A stretch of 64,000 nt of DNA from a virus (IMGVR_UViG_3300036546_000248); one strand, 5' to 3'. Counted from the stretch's first letter, positions 6,818-61,580 are shown. Notes: generated from the letters alone by a model not told the origin. Translations and numbers: made by a program.

Positions 6818-6861
6818 GCGGCATACAGGGAGGCCGAAGCCTCCCTGTACTTTTATGCCGC
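6818..6861. terminator. Bidirectional intrinsic terminator with TTTTATGCCGC box
   Basis: TACAGGGAGGC-CGAA-GCCTCCCTGTA between convergent genes; UUCG loop on the minus strand. Confidence 0.85.
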
Positions 6862-10080: not shown

Positions 10081-11544
10081 ATGTCGCTGCCCGTACCTAG
10101 CGAGAATATTAAAGGCATTGAATGTAAACACGCGGTTTACACACTGCCGAATGACGATGGTGATGGGGATGCCCTGATCGTCAAAGAAGTCATTCACACC
10201 AAAGACGGTCAATTGATCCCGAACCTCAAGATCATCGAAAACTACAAGCGCGATTTTTTCTATGCGCGTGAAGGTCAACGTAACTATACAGAAAAGAAGA
10301 CTCAAGAAAAAATTAATAACCTGCAACGTTACACCTGCACCCAACGTAACCTGCTCAGACAGATTGCGCGGGCTAAAGGGGTGGGTACTTTGCGTGGGGG
10401 TTTGCGTCAGATTGCACGCGACCCTTATTTGTACGGGTGTGACATCACCACACCCACGCTCCTTAAACGTGAATACCAACTGCGTTCTCCAGATTGCTTG
10501 TCCCCCAATGGCGTAGCGGTATTCGACATCGAGACGGATGTTGTCCACGGTACTGAACAACCCATCCTGATGGCCTTGACGTTTAAGGACAAAGTCTACC
10601 TGGCTGCGACCAAGTTCTTTGTAGGTCAAGACGTTCGCTTCTTGGAAAAGCTTAACAAAGCCATTGAAAAGTACTTGGAGAAGTACACTAAAGAGCGCAA
10701 CATTACCTACGAACTGGAGATCGTTGAGACACCCGGTGAAGGCATTCGGCGTTGCTTTGCCAAAGCCCACGAATGGAAACCTGAATTCGTCACCATCTGG
10801 AACATCGACTTCGATATCCCCAAATGCGTCAAGCAATTGGAAGCTGAAGGAATTGATCCAGCTCAAGTTTTCAGCGATCCATCGGTTCCCGAGCGCTATA
10901 AGTTCTTCCGCTACAAGCAGGGCAACGCTACTAAGAAAACCGCTTCGGGTCGAATCGATTCGATTCACCCAGCCGAACGGTGGCACGTAGCCGAATGTCC
11001 AGCGACGTTCTTTCTGATCGACAGCATGTGTGTGTACAAGCGTATTCGAATGGCTAAGCAAAACCTGCCTTCGTACAGCTTGGACTACGTAATGAAGGAG
11101 GAGTTGTCGGGGCTTGGTAAGCTTAAGTTCGAAGAGGCCGACGAATATGCAGGGTTGGCATGGCACGTGTTCATGCAGACCTATTACAAAGTCGAATATG
11201 CGGTCTACAACATCTTCGACTGTATCGGTGTAGAACTGTTGGATGAGAAGACCAAAGACTTGCAGCTGGTTATCAGTACCCAGTCGCGGGCTTCGGAATA
11301 CACCATCTACAATTCGCAACCTCGTCGTTTGGTGGATGACTTCTATTTCTTCTGTCGTGACCGAGGCTATATCCTAGGTTCGTGTAGCAACGAAATGGTC
11401 CATGAATTGGACGCTTACGTTGTTGGCATGAATGGACACATCGTGACCTTACCCTCTCACCAGACAGTGGATAACGGCGTCCGCGCTATTAAAGAACTGC
11501 CTGATGTAAGGACCTACATTCGTCGTCACGTAGCCGACTTGGAT
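10081..11544 (+). CDS. Split family-B DNA polymerase, N-terminal gene (phiKZ gp82-like), exon 1
   Basis: Exonuclease motifs FDIETD, WNIDFD and YNIFD; ends VADLD at the start of polymerase motif A. Confidence 0.88.
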
Positions 11545-11901
11545 TAATTAAAAGTCCCTTCAGACTGGAAGGTCTGAATGTAAACTCTTCTAATTGCTGG
11601 AAACCCCTGAGAGCTGTTCCACCACTGCGAGGCGAAAGCCAAAGCCACGGTTTGAAAACGGAACGGATTGGGCAACCGTGGGTCCTAAGGACCCCTTTAG
11701 CAGCCAAGCTCCTCTATGCGAAAGCAGTGGAGAAGGTTCAACGACTATCCCGCAAGGGAGTAGGGACAAGCGTCCCGAAACGGAGAGCACCCGACCCACC
11801 GTATGGTGAAGGGTGATGATATAGTCTCGGCATGTGGGGAAAGCCCACAGCAGTGCTTGATCGCACGGGGTAAAGTGTTGCGACTTAACCCGAAGATACC
11901 G
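11545..11901 (+). mobile_element. Group I intron (IA2-like, ORF-less, 357 nt) in the DNA polymerase gene
   Basis: 5' exon ends in U; P1 GGAU/GUCC with a U-G pair; P AATTGCTGGAAA; Q TAGCAGCC; P7 GACTA(11743)/TAGTC(11822); P3 CTCTTC/GGAGAG; P7.1 and P7.2 hairpins; terminal G11901; splicing restores DLD-IVSTYPN. Confidence 0.92.
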
Positions 11902-40510: not shown

Positions 40511-41900
40511 CTTTGATGTTTCTGCTATGTGAACCAACTTACACAACTGGACTTGTTGTAAACTGATTTAATCTACCTAAAGCCCATGGGGTGTTATAAA
40601 CGAATGCCCACGGACCTACTTGTCGAATGACATCCTTCTTAAGGGTTGTCGTTACAGCTTTCTTACTCAGACCTTGAGTGGTGTGGAACAGACTGGCGCT
40701 CTTAAACACCGAGACTTCGCCCGTCACCACATTCTTGGCCAACACTTCTTTAGGACCTCTACCCAAAGCTCGATCCAAAGACTCTTGGTCGATTTCGGGC
40801 AAACCTTCTTCCTTATACGCACAGACATAACGTTTGTTAACCAAACGCAAGACATCGCCTCTGGACATACATTGGAAGATGTGGCTGGGAAGTGCATCGA
40901 TAGCACGCCCTAAAAGACCCATCGAAGGGTATTCCTGAACTTCGTTGGTCTGGATATCTAAACACAACACTGGTCGTGAAGGCTGTTGACCCAGACTATC
41001 CCTTTCACGGATACGAGCTTTGTGAAGCTGTTCGGGGATTCTATCCTTTGTTCCATGGTGGGTGAGTACCCACCCATCGATAGGGATTCCTTCCTTAATG
41101 TGCTTCCAAATCACCTCAGGTTGATACCCGAAGTGCTCTCCCGCATGGAACAGGTCTCGGAGGAACATACACACACCGTCCTTATCAGCCAAAATCCGCG
41201 GACGTGATTCTGACTTAAAGAGTGCAGCGTGTATATTGTTAACCTTAACCGTTGCCCATTCGAGGTTTTCTACGTCGTTATTGGTACAGTCTCCATCGAT
41301 GTGGTTCACTGTTAACTGACTAACGTCCCTATCCCACGGTAAGTGTGCCAAGGCCACCATCCGATGAACGCCGAACGTTGGCATACTGCCATCCAACATT
41401 CTAACGTTAACCGTGATGTAGCCGTCAAGGTTGACGTAGTAATTCTTCTCAACGCCTTCGGAGTCAAAGATCCTACCGCACCGAGAAGCCATATACCCGT
41501 CAGTGCCCGGTATGATCTTCAAATCCATAACGTATCCTTTTCTTTATTTACACATAGCAGAAACGCACGAGTCGTTAATTCGTGGTTACCTGTGGTCCAG
41601 ACAGATAACTTCCTCACTTTCATGAGGCGGTAGACTATATCTTCTTCCAGTTTCCCAGAAGCTCCCTGTTTCGAATGTCACTTGACACCCTACTCTACTC
41701 GGTTCGTCTCTCGACGCCTTTCGATAGTCGTTGAACCTTGTCCGTAACTTGTCTCCCGACAATTTGTAGGACCTTGGCTGCTGATTGTCCAATCTCGATT
41801 CTTTTCAAACCATGACGTTTATCGTTTCCGATTCCGCTTTGGTGAACCAAGCTCTAAGGAGTTTCCAGCAATTTAAGGAGTTTAATGACGGCAATACTCT
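40511..41900 (-). mobile_element. Group I intron (IA2-like, 1390 nt) carrying an HNH endonuclease
   Basis: P1 UGACGGU/GCCGUCA with a U-G pair; P10 AGAGUAUU/GAUGCUCU; AAUUGCUGGAAA; AAUCAGCAGCC; P7 GACUA/UAGUC; terminal G; 14-bp inverted repeat (41551-41564/40518-40531) loops out the ORF. Confidence 0.95.
40539..41528 (-). CDS. Intron-encoded HNH homing endonuclease (NUMOD4-HNH)
   Basis: VHRMVALAHL...VNHIDGDCTNNDVENLEW; NUMOD4-like N-terminus. Confidence 0.92.
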   Translation of the reverse strand: MDLKIIPGTDGYMASRCGRIFDSEGVEKNYYVNLDGYITVNVRMLDGSMPTFGVHRMVALAHLPWDRDVSQLTVNHIDGDCTNNDVENLEWATVKVNNIHAALFKSESRPRILADKDGVCMFLRDLFHAGEHFGYQPEVIWKHIKEGIPIDGWVLTHHGTKDRIPEQLHKARIRERDSLGQQPSRPVLCLDIQTNEVQEYPSMGLLGRAIDALPSHIFQCMSRGDVLRLVNKRYVCAYKEEGLPEIDQESLDRALGRGPKEVLAKNVVTGEVSVFKSASLFHTTQGLSKKAVTTTLKKDVIRQVGPWAFVYNTPWALGRLNQFTTSPVV

Positions 41901-43157
41901 ACCGTCAAAATCAGCATTCATACCCCCTAGTACTAGGACTGATAAGCTCACTGTATTGACGTTGATGTCTTCACTCTTGATGCGGGTGACGTACAGGCGT
42001 TGCGCCGACAAACGGGTCAACGTAGGGTTACGTTGGAAGATTACCGGGATGCCCTTACGAGGCGATTCGGCGATCATTTCCTTGAAGATCTCATCGATCA
42101 GAGGATGGTACCGCAAGGTGTGTTCGAACAACAGCTTGTTGATTTGCTTGGGCGAATACCCACGATGGAGCAGTTTGGCCGTCAGGTGAGTTTTGAACAC
42201 CATGATGGACAGGGACCACGGGAGTTCCAGTTCCTCATGATGGTGTTGGTCTGAACGCGAGGTGATTACAGCCCGGAAGCTGAAATGGTCACGAGAACCA
42301 AACACGTGTTTACGCCACCAACCTGTTTTACTACCCAACTGCGCACCGATGAACGGGGCATAGTACTCAGATAGCATCACGATGGCCGTGACGGTACGTT
42401 TCTCGATTTCCTCTTGGCTCAGTTTGGTTTGACTGTGCACAATGCCGCTGATGGTGTAAATCGCATCAATGGCAGGGCGCATGGTCAGGTCACCGTACAG
42501 GCCTGTAGCTGCCTTCTCGATGATGAACGCCGCTTTCGACGGGATGGGCACCTTATGGCTGAAGATCAGATCGCGGTACAAAGCAATGAAAGTGCGTAGG
42601 TATTCCACCTTACGCTTCTTCTTATTGTCGTACAGCGGCCCTTCCTCCGAGCACATCAGTTGCATGATACTGTCGAAGTTGTGGTAGAAAGAATTCAACC
42701 CCCGCTTATACCCTTGTGCCGAAAGGCTTTGGGTGAAGAACTCCATCTTCTTATTCGGTGGGCGATATCCCGGATTGATCAACCAGTCCAGTAGACTGAC
42801 GCTCTTGATCGTCATCTCGGACTTCAAGATCACGTAGACCCAGGGGTTGATCAGACGTTCTACCCCTTGAGGGGCAGCAATCCACAACAACGCCTCCAGC
42901 GGCCGTTCCGTAGAAGGCAGGCAGAAGTGGTTACAGATTGGACAACGTACGCCAACGTTGTACTGATACTTCAGGTAGCCGCAATCGCATGAAGGTACGA
43001 TATCAAGCGACTCACCAGTGTACTTGGTGATTGCGAGGTTGTGGAGAGCGTCTCGGTCCTCTTTGCTGTCGATTTGATAATCGTTAATGATGAGCGGTAC
43101 GCTGGTCAGTGAATCAAATAGCTGATCGTGGTTCACGATCTCTGCACAGACACCCAT
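41901..43157 (-). CDS. nvRNAP beta-prime N-terminal subunit (phiKZ gp55-like), exon 1
   Basis: Zinc finger CDC...CPIC, FSFRAVI, RNPTL and NADFDG; spliced product is 476 aa. Confidence 0.92.
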
Positions 43158-43232: not shown

Positions 43233-45230
43233 TTAGCGACCCCAAACACCGCTGAACGCCTGGTTCCCGAAACGGGTACCGTAGTTCGGCTGGATCGCGC
43301 CCGAGGACATCCAGTTACCCAGGTTCGGGTTGACCAGCTGGCCTTGGAAGGTGTAGCCACCGCGAGTTGCACCCTGATTGAACGAATCAACCATGTTGCC
43401 CGGACGTACGGACAGACCGGCTTCTTCGATCGAATCGCTCAGAGCCTTGATGAACTGCTCGGAGAAGGTCACGCGACGCGCGAAGCCCTTGACCACGACG
43501 CTGCCGGAGAGCAGGCGATCGATGATGGTCTTGCGCTCGTGCAGACGCACAGCCAGCGGGATGTTGCGATCGAGGTGAGTACGCTCCCACTTCTCCACCA
43601 GAGTCGGATCGTCCTTGCCAGCCAGGTTCAGGATGGCGAGGTAGTCCAGCTCACGCAGATCACGCAGGTGACCGTCGCTGTTGGTGTAGTAGCCCAGGTG
43701 GATGCGGTCAGCATCGTCGAAGCACACCGGCGCATCGAACGGGAAGTGCTTCTCGAAGCGACCCAGGGTCAGGCGGTTGGCCGCCATCAGGATGCTCTTA
43801 CGCGCGTCTTCGTTCTTGTTCGCCGCAGCGATGAAGGTCTGCTGCAGCCAGCTCAGTTCACCAGCTTCTTCGATGTCCAGCGTGTACAGTAGCTGCTGGT
43901 TGAAGAACATGCTCATCATCTGAGCAAACTGCTGGTCACCGAAGTTGGTGGCCGAAGTGTCGATCTTGTTGCCCGGTTGACCAGGGTTGGCCGGGTCCTT
44001 GATCTCGTAGCCGATGGCGCCGATATCGCGGAGGTTGATGCCCTTGCGAGCGTTGGCACCTTCCGAGTACGCCTTGAGCGGACGACGGAAAGCGTTCCAC
44101 CAGTTGCCACCACGACCCAGCTGTACTGCAGTCGACAGCGCCAGGAGTTGGAGTTCCATGGACACGACATCGGTCAGTGATTCGACGGAGGTCAGTACGA
44201 GGCGAGGCTGGTACATCACACCCGGCATCATCTGCTGCGGCTGCATCATCGGGAACATGCCGAATTGCTGCTGAGCAGGTTGTTGCGGGTTGTACATCAG
44301 ATCGACGTAGCCGGTCACACGGGTCAGTTCACGCGGAGGACGCATGTCCAGACCTTGGGTGTCGGCGTTGTTGCTGGCGCTGACGGTCAGCTCGATGTCT
44401 TCGCGAACCGGCAGGCCCACGATGTTGGTACCATGAACCGAACCGTACTCGGAGCGAGCGGTCAGGATGTCCTTCTCGCCGAACTCGGCCAGGGTGAAGG
44501 GCGGAGCCTCGGCACCCAGCTTCAGATCCAGCACAGCCCAGACGGCCTGAACGCTGTTGTGCAGCCAGTCTTGGAAACGCTCGACCGGAATTTCCTTGTC
44601 GATCTCGGTCGGGATCACGGTGCAACCGGCATCATGCACTTGGGCATTCACGCCGAAGGTGTCGATCACGAACTTCTTCACGGTGTCCCAGTGGGACTTG
44701 TGGTTGTAGATGTCGCTCGGTGCGAAGATCGTTTCGATGGTGTGGCCATCGATGGTGGTGATGTTCGGCTGCAGCGGACGGCCAGAACCTTCGATCATCA
44801 GGTCGTAGACGCCGATGTGGGTTTGACCCTGATGAACTTCCTTCATGCACACGAGGATGCTGGAGTAGTTCACTTGCAGCTGGTTGCTGTCCAGCACCAG
44901 GAAGCGGAAGGCTTCGAGGGTCTTGGTGTCCATGACACGCTTGGCGCGTTCCAGGAGACCGTCGTGGATCTTCTGAACGGTTTCACCGCTCATGTTACGG
45001 CTGACGAGGCCGCGGTGCTGGCTGTTCACGTTCATGATCGAACGGCCGGCCTGGCCCACACGGGCGGAGGTATTGGTGTTCATGGTGGTCCCTCCCGATT
45101 CCGGGATCTGCTGCTGTTGGGGTTGGGGAGCAGGTTGAGCCTGCTGGGTTTCGTTAGCGCCCAGGCCAGCTTGACGCATGGCATCGGCCAGGCTGCCGTT
45201 GGATTTCCCGCTATCGCGATTGACACTCAT
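43233..45230 (-). CDS. chmA: Chimallin, phage nuclear shell protein
   Basis: 665 aa from MSVNRD (GAAGGA RBS); Q-rich N-terminus; RDIGAIG...IDTSATNFGDQQF, RDLRELDYLAILN and FIKALSDSIEEAGL resemble 201phi2-1 gp105 as recalled; directly upstream of the gp55-like gene. Confidence 0.88.
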   Translation of the reverse strand: MSVNRDSGKSNGSLADAMRQAGLGANETQQAQPAPQPQQQQIPESGGTTMNTNTSARVGQAGRSIMNVNSQHRGLVSRNMSGETVQKIHDGLLERAKRVMDTKTLEAFRFLVLDSNQLQVNYSSILVCMKEVHQGQTHIGVYDLMIEGSGRPLQPNITTIDGHTIETIFAPSDIYNHKSHWDTVKKFVIDTFGVNAQVHDAGCTVIPTEIDKEIPVERFQDWLHNSVQAVWAVLDLKLGAEAPPFTLAEFGEKDILTARSEYGSVHGTNIVGLPVREDIELTVSASNNADTQGLDMRPPRELTRVTGYVDLMYNPQQPAQQQFGMFPMMQPQQMMPGVMYQPRLVLTSVESLTDVVSMELQLLALSTAVQLGRGGNWWNAFRRPLKAYSEGANARKGINLRDIGAIGYEIKDPANPGQPGNKIDTSATNFGDQQFAQMMSMFFNQQLLYTLDIEEAGELSWLQQTFIAAANKNEDARKSILMAANRLTLGRFEKHFPFDAPVCFDDADRIHLGYYTNSDGHLRDLRELDYLAILNLAGKDDPTLVEKWERTHLDRNIPLAVRLHERKTIIDRLLSGSVVVKGFARRVTFSEQFIKALSDSIEEAGLSVRPGNMVDSFNQGATRGGYTFQGQLVNPNLGNWMSSGAIQPNYGTRFGNQAFSGVWGR

Positions 45231-45292
45231 CAGTTTATTTCCTTCAGGTTTGTTTGCGCAAACAACCCACACATCGGTGAGTATTCCAATGG

Positions 45293-45300
45293 GTAATATA
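45293..45300 (-). promoter_or_regulatory. Early promoter of chmA
   Basis: TATATTAC about 63 nt upstream of the ATG. Confidence 0.65.
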
Positions 45301-45439
45301 TACCCGATTTCTTTTCGAATACGATTCAGGTGACCGATAGCGATCATGCATCCTAAATCCCTTGGCGGAAAACCCACCAAGTTGTATTCGTCTATACCAT
45401 AGGTGAGAATGTAATTAAATATCTAATCCACATTCTTCC

Positions 45440-46932: not shown

Positions 46933-46969
46933 GCTAGGGAGGGGCGACCCTCCCTAGCTTTTATGTCGC
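46933..46969. terminator. Bidirectional terminator with TTTTATGTCGC box
   Basis: GCTAGGGAGGG-GCGA-CCCTCCCTAGC. Confidence 0.85.
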
Positions 46970-49132
46970 CGTTTCCCACTCTTGAACGAAATCACTCACC
47001 AGCTTGGTGTTGTTTCCATTCACCAAGAAGATCCCAAGGGCTTCAAGGATGAGGTAGAACGGCCGAACGGTTGAGTAGACAAGTTTACGGATGTTCATTG
47101 CTTGCACCACTTCTTTAGGCAATCCTCGACGCTCCACATTGTCCTTGGGGAGGAGTAGTGTAGTCATTCCAGGTTTGTTGGCGAAGTGCTTGGCAATTTT
47201 AGCAGCAACCTCCGGGTTTTCAATAGAAGCGATCCATTCCTGAATGGCTGTCTTGTTGGAAAGATCTAGCGATACCTTAATGGCTGGGTAGGGTAGCTCA
47301 GGAGCGTCCCCATAGTGCGGGGCAAAGATATCCTGCCAATACACGTAATGTTGATACGGGGACTGGCTCGGGTTGGTGTAGGAGTTGGCCGTCTTAACCG
47401 ATGAACGGGCCAAGTATTCAGACTTACCTTTAACCACAGAGTCGATAATACCGAGTTCGATATTGGCAATTTTGCGGTAAAGGTCAATCATCGAGATTTG
47501 TTGGTCTGCGATGACCGTGTCCATGATCTCCTTGATGGTCTCCGTCACCACCGCCATAATCTGTGGCGGACAGTTCGAGTCCTTCAGGTAAACCCCTTTG
47601 ATCTCCTCCTCGAGGTGTTTGAAGACGTTGCCTTCTCGTGCTGCCTTGTAGGCGAAGTAGTGTTTAGCCATAGAAGTCAGACCGAACACCGAGAATGCAA
47701 ACTCATTCTTCATGGCCAGAACGTTCAGCTTTTCGGGAATAACACCCAAGATGGTCGACAGTTTAGCCAAGACATGGATAATTGACTGAGATGCCAAGTA
47801 CACCATGGTGTAGTTGATGCTAAAGGCTTCTTCGCTGAAGTCCACCTTGCCCAAGTACCACTCCACCCAGTTCTCTACCGCAAAGATCGTGGAGTCCGTA
47901 TCAGAGGTGATTGCCACATGACGCATGGAGTTACGAATCCGTGCGACGGATGCAGGGACGTTGTCCGTTACCCAAAACGCCTCGATCAACAACGCGTATT
48001 GCTCAAGGGTTTCGATAACCTTCTTCGCAAATTCACCCATGACGCAGATGCCATGAATGTCGTTAGCATTCCCTTGTTCAGCCGACTCCTGTAGTTTCTT
48101 CAGGGTGCGTCCGTCCAACTCTTTGGCACAGATCAAACTGACGTAGGCTTTAAGGTCATTGTCCATCCCCTTCACATAAACCTTGGCATCTGTGTATGAC
48201 AGGGTGGTGCCGGTAGGTTTGCTGGACATGATTTGGAGGAAGGTGTGTACGAAGGTTGGGTTGTACTTTGCCAGATGCCACATGTCGCCTACGTAAACAA
48301 AGGCTGCACGTTCTAAGGGTTGGAGACCCTCTACCAACTTACGGACTTCCAACTCCTGCTTATTGTTACGCCAGTAATGGCGGGTACTGTAGAGGATGAC
48401 ATCCATAACCTGATCGACACTGGGGATTGTCAACCCGTAGGTCTCTACTGCTTTGCCCACCAGGTTGTAGTCGACATGACCGATGATGGAGGTGATGTTA
48501 GCCAAGACCACATCAGGGGCCCAGTAGTGACGATTACCCGCCAAGAACTTCTCGTTGTTGGCATTACCGTAACTTGTAGCTACACGGCAGGTAGACGTCA
48601 AGCTGGAGTGGGCCGACTTATTGTAGAATATTGTTGAAGCCGAAGCTTGACCACCAGAGATCGAGTTGTTGGCGATCTTGTACGTGGACTGTTCGTTCTC
48701 CTTAATGTCCGCCACCACCATATTACCCGCCATTTTAGCATCGAAGGCCTCGTCTTTAACCTTAGCGCGACCCTCAATGTTACCGGTAACGTAGATAGAG
48801 AGGAGCGACTCTCGGCGATTGGGGTTCTCGTATACGGTCATGGCAGGCGAGAACAACAACCTACGGTCTTTGATGTTGTTAAGGTATTCGGTGTACGTTA
48901 GGACCTTTTGTTCACGGTCACCGTTTTTATTACGGGCCAGGTGCAGAACTTCTGGATCTTTGATCTCCAAACGACCGCCACGTGCCGTCACTTGGTTAAC
49001 CCAGGCCTGACAAACCTCAAGAGGTTTACCGGTGCGCTTGGACAGATAAAGAGCCATGTCACTGCGATAGTTTCCCAGCACATCCAAGTCACGGTTGTAA
49101 TGGCTGGCGGGCTTAATGAATGCATTGTTCAT
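46961..49132 (-). CDS. Split family-B DNA polymerase, C-terminal gene (phiKZ gp50-like)
   Basis: Motif B KIANNSISG and motif C SDTDST. Confidence 0.88.
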   Translation of the reverse strand: MNNAFIKPASHYNRDLDVLGNYRSDMALYLSKRTGKPLEVCQAWVNQVTARGGRLEIKDPEVLHLARNKNGDREQKVLTYTEYLNNIKDRRLLFSPAMTVYENPNRRESLLSIYVTGNIEGRAKVKDEAFDAKMAGNMVVADIKENEQSTYKIANNSISGGQASASTIFYNKSAHSSLTSTCRVATSYGNANNEKFLAGNRHYWAPDVVLANITSIIGHVDYNLVGKAVETYGLTIPSVDQVMDVILYSTRHYWRNNKQELEVRKLVEGLQPLERAAFVYVGDMWHLAKYNPTFVHTFLQIMSSKPTGTTLSYTDAKVYVKGMDNDLKAYVSLICAKELDGRTLKKLQESAEQGNANDIHGICVMGEFAKKVIETLEQYALLIEAFWVTDNVPASVARIRNSMRHVAITSDTDSTIFAVENWVEWYLGKVDFSEEAFSINYTMVYLASQSIIHVLAKLSTILGVIPEKLNVLAMKNEFAFSVFGLTSMAKHYFAYKAAREGNVFKHLEEEIKGVYLKDSNCPPQIMAVVTETIKEIMDTVIADQQISMIDLYRKIANIELGIIDSVVKGKSEYLARSSVKTANSYTNPSQSPYQHYVYWQDIFAPHYGDAPELPYPAIKVSLDLSNKTAIQEWIASIENPEVAAKIAKHFANKPGMTTLLLPKDNVERRGLPKEVVQAMNIRKLVYSTVRPFYLILEALGIFLVNGNNTKLVSDFVQEWETAT

Positions 49133-52879: not shown

Positions 52880-53084
52880 AGGTTAATCCTTTCTTTAAAG
52901 GGGTCGGCCACTTCACTAAGATGTTATAGGTTTGAAACTTCTTAGGATGCGTTACAAGGGGTTCTCTATAAAATACGTGGTCAGGTATTGTTTAACAGAC
53001 GAAAACGTTATCTGGCGCTTCCTAGAGGGCTTATAAAGGATTTAAGGAAAAGGCGGCATAAAGGGAGGGGCGAACCCCTCCCTC

Positions 53085-53490
53085 TACACCCCACCTTCTG
53101 GGTGGAAAGGAGTAAACTGACCGGCCTGGTAACGTACGAAGACTTCCCCTTAAGCAGCCCTGTACCTACCAGCGATGTTCTCTGTACGACACAACACCGT
53201 TCCCGAGTCGTTGTTGCATCAGAACATACACCAGCCTCGTTCACCCACTGAAAAACCGCTACCCCGCCCTACGGATTGTAATAACTTTGCTCGCTCCACC
53301 GTGCGCAAACAAACAAATGAACGGTGGCAAAGTCCGGGTCACTTCTGTATTCATCCACACAGCTTTCACCGAGACCCATAACTCGGTTATCCGTACACAC
53401 GGAGCAGCGCCATAGACGTTGCCAGCGGAGAACACTCGGTGTTAATCCATTGTCCGTGAAAGCCAACGGATTTTTTTTTTCAGTACCGAT
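53085..53490. ncRNA. Candidate large structured ncRNA (about 400 nt)
   Basis: No credible ORF; nested long-range stems; flanked by terminator hairpins 53062-53083 and 53531-53548. Confidence 0.5.
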
Positions 53491-53565
53491 TAGATCGCAT
53501 ACTATAGGGCAAAGCCCCGAGAAAAAAAAAAGGAGGCCGAAGCCTCCTGAGGTTTTTGTGCCACC

Positions 53566-53988: not shown

Positions 53989-54340
53989 GAGTTTTACTCC
54001 ACGTGTATTTCCGTACGAGTTGATAGGACTGGTATTCGAATGCAAACGACACGCACCCGAAGGCCAAAGGTCCCCACCACCCTAGGAAAATGAAAGGGAT
54101 GATACCGACCACAACAGTCATAAACGTCAAGCTGGCTTGGTCAGTTGCTGACTTCAACCAAATCTCAACGGCCTTCCCCCCCAACACTGCTAGGCAGAGT
54201 GCTCTAGCGCCCGCATAGAAAGTCCACACCATTGCGATACGATGAGTTAACGCAAGGCCTGCCCATTTATATATCCCCAGCATCCCTACTGCTATGATGA
54301 GGTAGATCACAAAAGGTATTACACCCTTGCTAGTTTTCAT
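53969..54340 (-). CDS. Membrane protein
   Basis: 123 aa with 3-4 hydrophobic segments. Confidence 0.6.
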   Translation of the reverse strand: MKTSKGVIPFVIYLIIAVGMLGIYKWAGLALTHRIAMVWTFYAGARALCLAVLGGKAVEIWLKSATDQASLTFMTVVVGIIPFIFLGWWGPLAFGCVSFAFEYQSYQLVRKYTWSKTHGRYYH

Positions 54341-54396
54341 GTTGGCTACTTCTTATTTCCGTTTTAGTTTTAGTCTCACCGTTAGGAGCACGTCCC

Positions 54397-55008
54397 ATGA
54401 CGGCTAAACTTACTTCCCTCTTCGACACAAATCTCAGTTTGGTTTATAGTGCCGAAGGGATCGAGTTGGTTGATGCGGCTAAACGCCGTGACGCACCCTC
54501 GATTTACATTCTGTTGACGGACACCAAGACCCAGTTTAGCAAAGTCAGTAAACTGATTACGGGTGATCCCTACAACCATGTGTCCTTGATGTTAACCGAC
54601 AGTTTCGACGATCCTATCTACACCTACGCCTTGAACAACGGCATCAGTTCACTTAAGGGCGGTTTCATGGTGGAAGATCGTTCTAACTTGTACGGTTCAT
54701 TTTATTCGCTTTACGAGTTAAAAGTAACAGGCGCAGCGTACCGTCAGATCAAGGAACGGGTAGAGTACCTTGCGGCAAATCCCAATCAGACTCGGTATAA
54801 CCATCTGGGTTTGTTCAACGCCATCTTCCGCAAGAATATCTTTTCCTCTGAGGACGGGCAGATCTCCATCTGTTCTGAATTCGTGGTTGAGGTCTTACGC
54901 TTTGGCGGCATAGAACTCTTAAAGGGTAGACTCGGTAGCACCATCCGGCCTTACGACCTGGTGCGCTCCAAGCTACTGAAATTTGTACGCCGAGGCAAAA
55001 TCAACTAG
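54397..55008 (+). CDS. Permuted papain-like (NlpC/P60, YiiX-type) protein
   Basis: YNHVSL...ICSEFV with His before Cys; AGGAG RBS. Confidence 0.75.
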   Translation: MTAKLTSLFDTNLSLVYSAEGIELVDAAKRRDAPSIYILLTDTKTQFSKVSKLITGDPYNHVSLMLTDSFDDPIYTYALNNGISSLKGGFMVEDRSNLYGSFYSLYELKVTGAAYRQIKERVEYLAANPNQTRYNHLGLFNAIFRKNIFSSEDGQISICSEFVVEVLRFGGIELLKGRLGSTIRPYDLVRSKLLKFVRRGKIN

Positions 55009-55266
55009 ACGGCATAATTAGGAAACGCCCCCGTCTCGACTCGAGTCAGGTCTGAGTGTCTTTTGCTTCGCTGCTGCCTCAAAGGGCTGCTGCTAGCTTG
55101 GACTACTGCCTGGGCTGCGGCCGAGGGGGGGTGTTCTTTACTGCTTTTGAAGCTATCAAGCAAACCCTAGGGGGGTGGACAGCTGATAGAGGCCGTTCGT
55201 CCTAGGTGTGTTACTATTAACGACTGCTGGGTTGGTAAACCCTTTACTGCCGAACTTAATCGGTTC
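55008..55266 (-). ncRNA. Candidate ncRNA with repeated GCAG motifs
   Basis: Starts at the G of TATATATG; nine GCAG motifs; small hairpins; ends at TTATGCCG. Confidence 0.5.
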
Positions 55267-55344
55267 ATATATATAGCGCATCAATAGACGCTTCTATCTT
55301 AAACCATGGCCCTGAACCCTGTGAACTGGCGGGGGGTTTTATGC

Positions 55345-55845
55345 CGCGCGTTAAAAGGCCGCGGACTCACCTCAGATATATGTTCAAAGATAGACGCTCC
55401 GTTGACCGCCAGCACTGACCGAACCACCCAAATGACTTGGCGCCATTGGTAGCATAAGGTCAGCATGATGAGTAGCAGAAAGAAAAAGATTCCTTGTATG
55501 CTCGCATGGACGGTTGATGGGAAATAGGAGACGTCTGCGCCTTACAGGCACCTTAAGCCTGGGGTGCGAATCTCCCACCAATGTGCGTCGCCTAGGCCAA
55601 CTCTCATCCACTACAAACCCGTAAGCTGTTTTAACACGGGGAATATCGATTCCTTCTCGTGTTACTGCCTCGTGTTGAAAGGACCGTAAAGTGTAAGCCT
55701 TCTGCGACCAGCCGTTGGAGGTGGTATAGTAGCCGACATCCACACCCTGAACTTCAACCCCCGCTGGGATTCCCTGATTCAGCAAGTGCGCCAACGCCAA
55801 TGCACCCATACCACCGATGATCAAGACTCTTATACAAAGCCCCTT
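55345..55845 (-). other. Structured region: ncRNA or a doubtful 146-aa ORF
   Basis: Long-range stems that need G-U pairs on the minus strand; ORF 55384-55824 has a poor RBS and an atypical second half. Confidence 0.35.
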
Positions 55846-55914
55846 ATTAAAAATGGTGGGTTGGTAGAGCGACCAGGAAAAGGTATCGCTCTAGGCTCCA
55901 ACCCCACCAAAACC

Positions 55915-56076
55915 TTAACAGACCATCTCGGGAACCGGGATGCCCAACTCTTCGCACCGTTTCTCCAAATCAGCTTGGGCTTGTTGAAACTGCTCAATCC
56001 GCTTCAAAGTCTCTTCTCGAGCCTTCGGATTCGGTGTGGGTAGCTTCAAGTCGCTTAACTTGATTGGACGGAGCAT
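55915..56076 (-). CDS. Small hypothetical protein (53 aa, not in the ORF track)
   Basis: GAGGA RBS; MLRPIKLSDLKLPTPNPKAREETLKRIEQF...; followed by a long hairpin and T-tract. Confidence 0.6.
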   Translation of the reverse strand: MLRPIKLSDLKLPTPNPKAREETLKRIEQFQQAQADLEKRCEELGIPVPEMVC

Positions 56077-56273
56077 GTGGTGTCCTCATATGGATAACGT
56101 TCGAGCATCGCGATTCGCTTGCGAGTCAAACCCATACACAGTACAAACTGGAACAATCCCAGCCCCACTGCCGCATGCCAGGAAAACAAACTTCCAATGG
56201 CTGCACCTATCACTGCACAGAATACGACGAACAAGGTGCGTAAAACCAAATACTCTTTTTGCTCTTGCGTCAC
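56055..56273 (-). CDS. Small membrane protein
   Basis: 72 aa with two TM segments. Confidence 0.55.
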   Translation of the reverse strand: MTQEQKEYLVLRTLFVVFCAVIGAAIGSLFSWHAAVGLGLFQFVLCMGLTRKRIAMLERYPYEDTTCSVQSS

Positions 56274-56316
56274 GATGATGAAGTCCTATTTCAATGGTGG
56301 TGTTTAAGACAATGTA

Positions 56317-57020: not shown

Positions 57021-58001
57021 TTACAGAACCAAACCGTCGTCTTGTGCTTCGTCCAGATCCACGATCTTGCGGGTCTGTACGCGGCTATCGCGACGAGCGT
57101 TGTAGTCGTTACGGGTTTCCTCGAGCTTCTCGTAAGTCGCGCCGAGGTGTTGGGTCGAGATCACGAAATGGATCTCTTCGATGTCCTGCACCTTGTGCTG
57201 GAAGTAACCAGTTGCCGAGTAGTCCGGCACCGGATCGGTAAGATGCGGTTGGTCACGATCAGCGTAGAGGCTGGCCACCGAGATCGGATCGGTGATGCTC
57301 TTGGCCGACTTCTGGTCGATGAAGATGTCCAGCAGCGAGAGCTGCGGCGCCACTTCGGTCGAGTGGTTGTAACGCAGCCAGTGACTGACGTCTTTGGTAT
57401 CCAGCTCGGCATTCTGACGCGAAGCCAGGTACGACAGGCAGGAGGTAGCGAACGCCAGCTTTTTGTCCACCGCGCTGCGGGTGTTGTCGCCACCGTTGTG
57501 CAGGTAGTAGGTCACGACAGGGGCCGATTCCTTCTTACTGATAGCCGCCAACGATTTCAGGGTGTTGACGGTGTTGTTGGCAGTGATGTTCGATTCCGAA
57601 GAACCGGCAGTCAGTACCACGACCGGCAACCCGCGCGCCAGCAGTTCGGAGACGATCAGCGGACCCAGAACAGAACCCGAGCCACCGGAGGCCGAGAACA
57701 CGACGATGTTGAACTCACCAGGCTGCTGCGATTGCAGGATGTGCTTGATGGAGCTGGAGATCTGAGCGTGGTTCTCACGACGCACCTTACCGGAACCGTC
57801 GGTGTTGTCGAGGATGTAGATCTTTTCCTCGGGGATTTCCGGAGTCAGGTTGGAGCGACTGGTGTCGATGAACGCCGGATCGATCGCAGCGAACCCATCA
57901 CCTCCCTGACTCTTCAGGTAGTTTGCAGCGAAATTGACCCCGAGGCCCCCACACCCAAAAATTCGAACGGTACCGACACCAGAAACGTTTTTATCGCTCA
58001 T
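57021..58001 (-). CDS. phuZ: PhuZ phage tubulin
   Basis: GCGGLG, IDTS, GSGKVR, SGGSGS tubulin signature; C-tail IVDLDEAQDDGLVL. Confidence 0.93.
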   Translation of the reverse strand: MSDKNVSGVGTVRIFGCGGLGVNFAANYLKSQGGDGFAAIDPAFIDTSRSNLTPEIPEEKIYILDNTDGSGKVRRENHAQISSSIKHILQSQQPGEFNIVVFSASGGSGSVLGPLIVSELLARGLPVVVLTAGSSESNITANNTVNTLKSLAAISKKESAPVVTYYLHNGGDNTRSAVDKKLAFATSCLSYLASRQNAELDTKDVSHWLRYNHSTEVAPQLSLLDIFIDQKSAKSITDPISVASLYADRDQPHLTDPVPDYSATGYFQHKVQDIEEIHFVISTQHLGATYEKLEETRNDYNARRDSRVQTRKIVDLDEAQDDGLVL

Positions 58002-61105: not shown

Positions 61106-61580
61106 GTTAAGTGTTGGCTCGTTGTTGTTGGTTCACTTACACCCCAACTCCACTGGAGGTTACGTTGGTTAGGTGCTTGTGTTTAATAGGGTTAGTTAAC
61201 AGTAGAGACGTAAAAGGTTTTTCAAAAGCATAGGAAGGGAATCTTCGATTCCCTGCTCTTTAGCCCCCTTTCCCCCGCCAGTTCATGGCCTTTACGCTAC
61301 GCTCCAAGACCATTCACGCGAGTGAAATGGGATTGGTTTAGCTGTCAGTCAGTCCTAGTATCTCCGCTTACGCTTCGCTACTACTCCTTCCTTCCGCTTT
61401 TATGTCAAAGCCATACCGAAGTAATGTAAAAAAATACTGACACAGGAAAACAAGACTAGATAACCCTAAGAGATACCCCAGAGGGGATCTAAAAAAGCAA
61501 ACATTTATCTATGCCCCGCCGCCCCGCGCTGCCCGCCGGCATAACCGGGCGCAACGGCCGAAGCCGCCCGCCCAGCCTAC

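Follow-up and report, generated by a model that had tools for sequence, protein, structure and literature searches.

A conserved, hairpin-rich non-coding island with lineage-variable cassettes between convergent genes of uncultured nucleus-forming jumbo phages

Most intrinsic terminators of phage phiKZ, as mapped by ONT-cappable-seq, share a hairpin followed by the motif YTTATKYYGT (Putzeys et al. 2024; PMC10914365); where genes converge in phiKZ, the same study describes terminator regions that are bidirectional. The core of the phiKZ late promoter, which is used by the nvRNAP, is TATG with the G as position +1, a sequence that is necessary, not sufficient (PMC4666361). Both phiKZ and 201phi2-1 have documented small RNAs that are intergenic or derived from UTRs. 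Long hairpins processed by RNase III are also known in phage transcripts, as in the R sites of T7 and in lambda. Here we describe a non-coding island, present in uncultured nucleus-forming jumbo phages, on which constraint is much stronger than on the genes that flank it, and we compare it with these systems.

The island lies in a viral stretch of 64,000 nucleotides that was analysed as a whole and is referred to as the window. Chimallin (43233-45380), the PhuZ tubulin (57021-58001), and a divergent family B DNA polymerase (PolB, 46961-49132) are all encoded on the minus strand of this 64-kb window and together identify its source as an uncultured nucleus-forming, phiKZ-like jumbo phage. BLAST searches of named phages returned no match for the region or for the 203-aa protein encoded next to the island, and the best PhuZ match among named phages, to Xanthomonas phages, is 43% identical. 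The 203-aa gene is the sole plus-strand gene within a run of minus-strand genes, and the island is placed between convergent units, with this gene on one side and the minus-strand unit of PhuZ through gene A and ORF B on the other. Searches of Pfam, PHROGs, NCBIfam, and PDB with the neighboring proteins yielded no RNA-binding or nuclease assignment. Elsewhere in the window, two group I introns (11535-11850, plus strand; 41611-41910, minus strand) score above the Rfam gathering threshold, and a second gene-free island of ~680 nt (about 52880-53565) lies on the far side of the neighboring genes and is without gene calls in all relatives obtained (986-1668 in L030 and equivalents). A third ORF-free island, at 61221-61580, has TGAACTGGCGGGGG (inverted) and the word (T)ATGCTTTTGAA in common with the island studied here; a covariance model found no overall homology between the two. 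The window also contains TATATTACC 50-70 nt upstream of gene starts, including that of chimallin (14508, 16172, and 45300, the last on the minus strand), and all 12 copies of TATATTA in a relative's genome are intergenic; the TATATTA/TATATTACC word is likely the core of an early (virion RNAP) promoter.

Orthologues were anchored on the 203-aa gene that ends at 55008, which gave 11 distinct orthologous loci, four from IMG/VR (L001-L004) and seven from public assemblies (L030-L036). In all of them, from 99% down to 69% amino acid identity, the island directly follows the 203-aa gene. It is an ORF-free, hairpin-rich segment of ~340 nt, extending from 55009 to about 55347 (table 1), and the GCAG-rich stretch that first drew attention to it makes up its larger part. 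The scaffold of the island is 93-97% identical in L003, L004, and L030, compared with 79-80% nucleotide identity in the flanking gene and 55-60% at its third positions; in L033 and L036, the corresponding values are 86-89%, 70-72%, and 45-48%. The island scaffold is thus conserved far above synonymous sites. In the 12-sequence alignment, 96% of the cells in seven helices are standard pairs, compared with 39-50% in slid controls, eleven pairs have changes on both sides, and the covariation score was matched by none of 500 shuffles. The helices of the island covary, therefore; hairpin C1 (helix 4) contributes three pairs changed on both sides. Single-base changes in the 22-mer, which is otherwise invariant, occur in three relatives; C2 and box 3 are separated by a constant 67-72 nt; and H0 takes the form CCGCA/TGCGG in L001-L003 and is replaced by other stems in L032-L035. 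Across 55009-55298 no reading frame is conserved, and the small ORFs listed in the island core are ruled out because 1-nt indels in relatives break all of them.

Table 1. Coordinates of the island's features and of the adjoining genes in the window.
Feature	Position	Strand	Remarks
203-aa gene	54397..55008	+	Weak PHROG 1128 match; stop codon 1 nt ahead of box 1
Box 1	55010..55017	-	CGGCATAA on plus, TTATGCCG(T) on minus; matches the phiKZ-type terminator tail, after D1
D1, long irregular hairpin	55021..55136		Lower stem C5/G7; conserved internal loops ACUCGAG and UGCGG
Tip cassette of D1	55053..55107		Hypervariable; in the window a CUG/CAG-type hairpin with 5/9 CTGC
Linker	55132..55149		U-rich on plus (GUGUUCUUUACUGCUUUUG), A-rich on minus; putative tail of plus-strand terminator
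Mid-domain cassette	55150..55221		Hypervariable; closed stem-loop domain in every lineage
CTGCTGG linker (AGCAG on minus) and hairpin C1 (GGGUU/AACCC)	55224..55242	-	C1 100% paired
22-mer GCCGAACTTAATCGGTTCATAT (minus strand ATATGAACCGATTAAGTTCGGC)	55249..55270	-	Holds hairpin C2 and TATG (G at 55266, candidate late-type start)
Hairpin Dh1 (AGCG/CGCT)	55275..55292		Sequence varies, pairing kept (helix 6)
Hairpin D2	55305..55321		GC-to-CG swaps at three pairs (helix 7)
Box 3, TTTTATGCCG	55337..55346	+	Inverted partner of box 1; Arg-His-Lys in ORF B
Hairpin H0 (CCGCG/CGCGG)	55344..55364		Variable, beside box 3
ORF B, small hydrophobic (GIFFFLLLIMLTLCYQW...VLAVNGASIF...)	about 55496 to 55299	-	Stop 55301-55299
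Gene A	55500..55824	-	Conserved N-terminal two thirds (~105 residues) of listed 146-aa ORF

At the right-hand boundary of the island is a minus-strand unit, gene A and ORF B, that converges on it. The 146-aa ORF listed there (55384-55824, minus strand) is not one gene and represents a read-through artefact of this lineage, its C-terminal third containing stops or frameshifts in L003, L030, L031, L033, and L036. ORF B starts at or just after the stop codon of gene A and stays open, despite synonymous or conservative changes, in all but one of 12 relatives; several relatives are without a canonical start codon and have an Ile codon after AAGGA. The 3' part of ORF B crosses the covarying hairpins H0 and D2 and box 3 (read as Arg-His-Lys). 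Given its stop at 55299, the non-coding part on the minus strand extends from 55298 to about 55010 and constitutes the 3' region of gene A/ORF B. A type I toxin-antitoxin pair composed of ORF B and the RNA was considered and rejected, its basis being just that the ORF is small and hydrophobic.

Database searches point to a narrow distribution of the island. A search of Rfam with 54300-56300 at E<=10 found nothing in the island and two chance-level matches outside it, and Rfam covariance models had no match in seven orthologous loci. Scans at the Rfam gathering threshold likewise yielded nothing of relevance to the island. We built our own covariance model from the right half of the island and searched the window, a whole relative genome, and a clade with 63% identity (L005-L007); the model recovered only the island itself, which indicates that the island has no paralogue and that the L005-L007 clade lacks a homologue. 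Exact-pattern scans of IMG/VR and JGI metagenomes returned the same lineages only, plus chance matches in coding regions. Within the scope of these searches, the island appears to belong to no Rfam family, to lack paralogues, and to have homologues only within one uncultured clade. In L005-L007 (4573-4760), the counterpart of the 203-aa gene is followed by what looks like a plain terminator, then by TTTATG-N-CGGCATAAAAGC, a variable hairpin of 55-90 nt, and GCTTTTATG, an arrangement that is shorter, lacks the 22-mer, and encloses its variable hairpin in boxes.

The left-hand end of the island can be compared directly with phiKZ terminators. Box 1 is invariant in all 12 sequences, and on the minus strand D1 is followed in every one of them by (C/T/A)TTATGCCG(T/C). 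The sequence TTATGCCGT agrees with the phiKZ tail YTTATKYYGT (PMC10914365), and the locus has both a stable GC-rich hairpin followed by the tail motif in the transcript sense and, as for phiKZ-type terminators, a position at gene ends between convergent genes. As a stand-in for the genome of the window we used G002, a 221-kb IMG/VR genome that is 99% related, in which CGGCATAAA is present in 23 copies (1.7 expected), 29 of the 44 GGCATAA boxes have a neighboring hairpin that is more stable than the fifth percentile of random 45-mers, and, among 7-mers, the box ranks with T-runs and the early-promoter word TATATTAC as one of the most enriched in intergenic DNA. Boxes in the window (cGGCATAAa on the sense strand of the gene) lie 0-5 nt past stop codons and directly ahead of perfect GC hairpins, which are often followed by CTTTTATGCC, such that the modules are palindromic. 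A module composed of a stop codon, cGGCATAAAAG, a perfect GC hairpin, and CTTTTATGCC recurs genome-wide (in the window at 6853, 12172, 23187, 30207, 53055, and 60735), and, because it is palindromic, we predict that it is bidirectional. The module with cGGCATAAAAG appears to be this clade's counterpart of the phiKZ terminator motif.

D1 covaries in helices 2 and 3 and folds about equally well on either strand. The stem of seven C and five G residues proposed in the sequence-only reading is real; it corresponds to the lower stem of this long hairpin, with compensatory changes and conservation in 12 sequences. With the TTATGCCG tail behind D1 on the minus strand and a U-rich tail behind it on the plus strand, the structure is best read as a bidirectional terminator of the phiKZ type, and we consider it most likely that D1 is a very long bidirectional intrinsic terminator. 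This reading supports the 3' boundary that had been proposed for a minus-strand RNA, and both of the proposed ends are present on that strand, TATATATG with its G at 55266 and TTATGCCG at 55017-55010. The base of D1 (AGGAAAC ... GUGUUCUUU; 55021-55030, 55132-55139) resembles the GUUCU-NAGG-AGAAC hairpins with which this phage presents Shine-Dalgarno sequences, a resemblance that may be coincidental.

Two segments of the island differ from the scaffold in that they are replaced as units. Cassette types were assigned from module-by-module identity matrices. The tip cassette of D1 is swapped for unrelated hairpins in L003, L004, and L030-L036, and in L003, L004, and L030 the flanks are still 93-97% identical despite the replaced tip; the sequence of the mid-domain is unrelated between lineages. 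Tip type A is found in the window, L001, and L002, type B in L003, L004, and L030, and other tips in other lineages; mid-domain type A is found only in the window and in L001-L004. The modules therefore reassort: tip B is identical in L003 and L030 but is combined with mid-domain A in the former and with an unrelated mid-domain in the latter. The right flank is a mosaic in which the window resembles L004 and L001-L003 are of another type. In addition, a contig from a wastewater RNA library has a further replacement of 55150-55243, and the type-A form is present in the same sample. Comparison of these loci shows two hairpin cassettes that have evidently been exchanged between lineages.

The evidence on the strand and start of a transcript is of several kinds. 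Mean fold z-scores are -3.25 for the minus strand and -2.54 for the plus strand, and 10 of 12 orthologues have the lower value on the minus strand; the patterns of G-U pairs do not discriminate, because each strand finds its own register. Of the 12 sequences, 11 have TATG inside the 22-mer (minus strand, 55269-55266), and L004 has AATG instead. The longer word TATWTATG occurs three times in 221 kb, too rarely for a general promoter consensus of the phage, and a sigma-70 scan found nothing meaningful. The proposal of a minus-strand RNA from ~55266 to the TTATGCCG box is plausible in that the box fits the phiKZ tail and the TATG is kept. RNA-library contigs from three studies include the island, and DNA carry-over is possible in these data. 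In one oligo-dT library, contig depth is 4.6 over 55557-55882 (gene A), 22 over 55317-55522 (ORF B region), and 32 over 55108-55287; the plus-strand gene is not covered at all, and the contig runs into an adapter at ~55105, within D1 and off the predicted terminator tail. Runs X15, X17, and X20 from RNA libraries have flat depth or holes in their cover. The contigs hint weakly at a minus-strand RNA that may be processed in D1, and cannot give strand, ends, or level.

Taking these observations together, we lean with moderate confidence toward a reading in which the island is a compound bidirectional terminator/insulator at the convergent junction combined with a stable, structured minus-strand 3' tail of a small-membrane-protein operon. 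We posit that D1 stops RNA polymerase arriving from either side, by means of the UUUAUGCCGU tail on the minus strand and the U-rich tail on the plus strand. The gene A/ORF B message would end in a structured 3' tail, formed by the minus-strand RNA from 55298 to about 55010, and an additional minus-strand RNA of ~250 nt would be made, probably from the conserved TATG at 55266. Four hairpins (C2, C1, the mid-domain, and D1) would protect the 3' end of the minus-strand RNA, and the long stem of D1 may be cut by RNase III. A plain terminator does not account for the near-invariant 22-mer, the conserved internal loops of D1, or the obligatory mid-domain; an island function beyond termination is therefore likely, and an RNA that acts in trans is a serious rival.

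This rival, which we regard as unlikely and nonetheless as the best of the alternatives, holds that the ~250-nt minus-strand RNA is modular and acts in trans, with a scaffold of C2, C1, A-rich linkers, and terminator that presents the cassettes as specificity determinants; such an RNA could work as an antisense regulator or as a decoy for a host factor, either a defence factor or an RNA-binding one. It would account for cassettes that are swapped whole while the scaffold is still 93-97% identical, for the reassortment of tip and mid-domain types (L003 versus L030), and for the occurrence of two mid-domain variants in one wastewater sample. A partner is suggested by the conserved single-stranded linkers and by the 22-mer, which is invariant apart from three single-base variants, and the small intergenic and UTR-derived RNAs of phiKZ and 201phi2-1 provide precedents. 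However, candidate antisense targets in the genomes of relatives are chance-level matches of 14-17 nt only, the island has neither a paralogue nor an Rfam family, and the turnover of cassettes could be neutral if any stable hairpin suffices. We are more cautious still about the stronger form of this idea, a modular ncRNA with an ultra-conserved scaffold, whose cassettes recombine between co-circulating jumbo-phage lineages and are under diversifying selection as specificity determinants, for instance of a decoy for a host nuclease or defence system or of a tunable antisense regulator, and consider it rather doubtful.

The other readings are less likely than a trans-acting modular RNA. If the plus strand were the functional one, the 203-aa gene would have the island as its 3' UTR, in which as many as three phiKZ-type terminators in tandem (D1 with the U-tail, C1 with UUUAUGCCG, and the G-run with UUUUAUGCCG) would shield the PhuZ-side operon from antisense read-through. 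We find this improbable. In its favor, absolute fold energy is lower for the plus strand, whose fold also contains many conserved G-U pairs within D1; TTTATGCCG comes after C1 in L004, with near-variants of it at other loci; and there is a terminator-like site at 55317-55334 on the plus strand. Against this, the z-scores favor the minus strand, C1 is just 5 bp long, box 3 is without an adjacent upstream hairpin in L032-L035, and in the one informative RNA library the plus-strand gene has no cover compared with a depth of 32 over the island.

An element that acts as DNA, such as a replication origin, a packaging site, or a recombination hot spot, with the 22-mer as a protein-binding site next to an AT run and cruciform-prone repeats, seems to us slightly more improbable again. 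The near-invariant 22-mer adjoins one of the genome's very few pure A/T octamers, the mosaic flanks indicate crossovers within the island, and the cumulative G-C curve of a relative peaks 3.5 kb away. The skew maximum is, however, a broad plateau from 180 to 193 kb that is not centered on the island, the short AT run next to the 22-mer is 9 bp long and degrades in relatives, and the compensatory changes in the hairpins and the terminator boxes are more simply explained by RNA.

The sequence-only reading had interpreted the island as a sponge on the strength of GCAG on the minus strand, and the count itself was exact. CTGC occurs on the plus strand at 55071, 55074, 55087, 55090, 55106, 55115, 55141, 55224, and 55247, that is, nine times in 180 nt where the frequency in the window predicts 0.75; the runner-up among the 180-nt segments of the 64 kb has five copies, none of 500 dinucleotide shuffles of the stretch attains nine, and GCAG is absent from the plus strand of the same stretch. 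Four of the copies form two overlapping pairs in two CTGCTGC heptamers, which leaves seven non-overlapping sites. The placement that had been proposed for the motif, at the 3' foot of mini-hairpins, holds for UCGG-CAGUA (55247) and AACCC-AGCAG (55224), both in small minus-strand hairpins, and does not hold for the five copies at 55071-55106, which are base-paired inside or at the edge of one hairpin tip as part of a single CUG/CAG-type stem.

It is the comparison with relatives that decides the matter. Counted from box 1 to TATG, the window has nine CTGC and the 11 orthologues have 7, 6, 3, 2, 4, 4, 2, 3, 1, 0, and 3, such that the two closest keep seven and six and the remainder zero to four. 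Conserved positions are limited to 55115 (9 of 12 sequences) and 55224 (10 of 12). The copies at 55071-55106 fall in the cassette that is swapped wholesale in other lineages, and those at 55141 and 55247 are gone even in near-identical relatives by way of single-base changes, 55141 being polymorphic (TTTATTGC in L001, L002, and L004) and 55247 reading TTAATGCCG or TTTATGCCG in the closest relatives. The excess of GCAG thus appears, among these loci, to be specific to one lineage, and under the compound-terminator reading it would be a by-product of a CUG/CAG-type tip and of point variants of terminator-tail sequences, with no array of binding sites. A CsrB/RsmZ-like sponge, in which repeats of a hairpin with GCAG would serve to titrate either an RNA-binding protein or a ribonuclease of a defence system, is very improbable despite nine copies in 180 nt, far above chance, and two that sit after small conserved hairpins, because the count is not conserved in orthologous loci (0-7 copies and two conserved positions), which the sequence-only reading had itself named as a refutation, five of the nine copies are paired in one exchangeable stem, two others are erased by point changes in near-identical relatives, and the neighboring genes encode no recognizable RNA-binding domain. 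The non-conservation of GCAG in this way removes a tempting but wrong reading of the island as a new sponge RNA.

When the island is compared with described systems, its closest counterparts are the terminators of phiKZ (PMC10914365) and 201phi2-1 (PMC11512511), in which a GC-rich hairpin is followed by TTAT-K-Y-Y-G-T, as D1 is followed by UUUAUGCCGU on the minus strand. Like the bidirectional terminator regions of phiKZ, the island is found between convergent genes, and the box occurs beside short GC hairpins throughout G002. The phiKZ terminator stem is 7 bp long, whereas D1 has ~45 bp, conserved internal loops, and an exchangeable tip. Unlike phiKZ terminators, the island also has, between its two inverted boxes, ~200 nt of further conserved structure that includes the near-invariant 22-mer. 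With the RNase III hairpins of T7 and lambda, D1 has in common a long imperfect stem, internal loops, and a position at a transcript boundary; cleavage in D1 is putative, and the sharp end of an RNA-library fragment in its stem at ~55105 comes from a single contig-adapter junction. The CsrB/RsmZ sponge RNAs are similar to the island in being multi-hairpin non-coding RNAs in which a short motif is locally over-represented, but their motifs lie in hairpin loops and are conserved in multiplicity, whereas in the island the motif is mostly base-paired or at the feet of stems and its count is not conserved. The putative minus-strand RNA can be set beside DapZ and MicL as a short, structured RNA that would be delimited by a phage terminator and is conserved in related phages, and it may have its own start in the 3' region of an operon; the island has no sequence or Rfam relationship to either and, unlike them, has hypervariable cassettes and has been seen only as metatranscriptome contigs. 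Terminators with the phiKZ motif and small terminator-bounded RNAs are already known in phiKZ-like phages, and the island links that motif to an unusually long, apparently bidirectional hairpin. What is unusual in the island is the exchange of cassettes within a fixed RNA scaffold, which, if adaptive, would be a new route by which giant phages diversify RNA function and, if not, would provide a natural example of a compound bidirectional terminator for transcription by phage RNAP.
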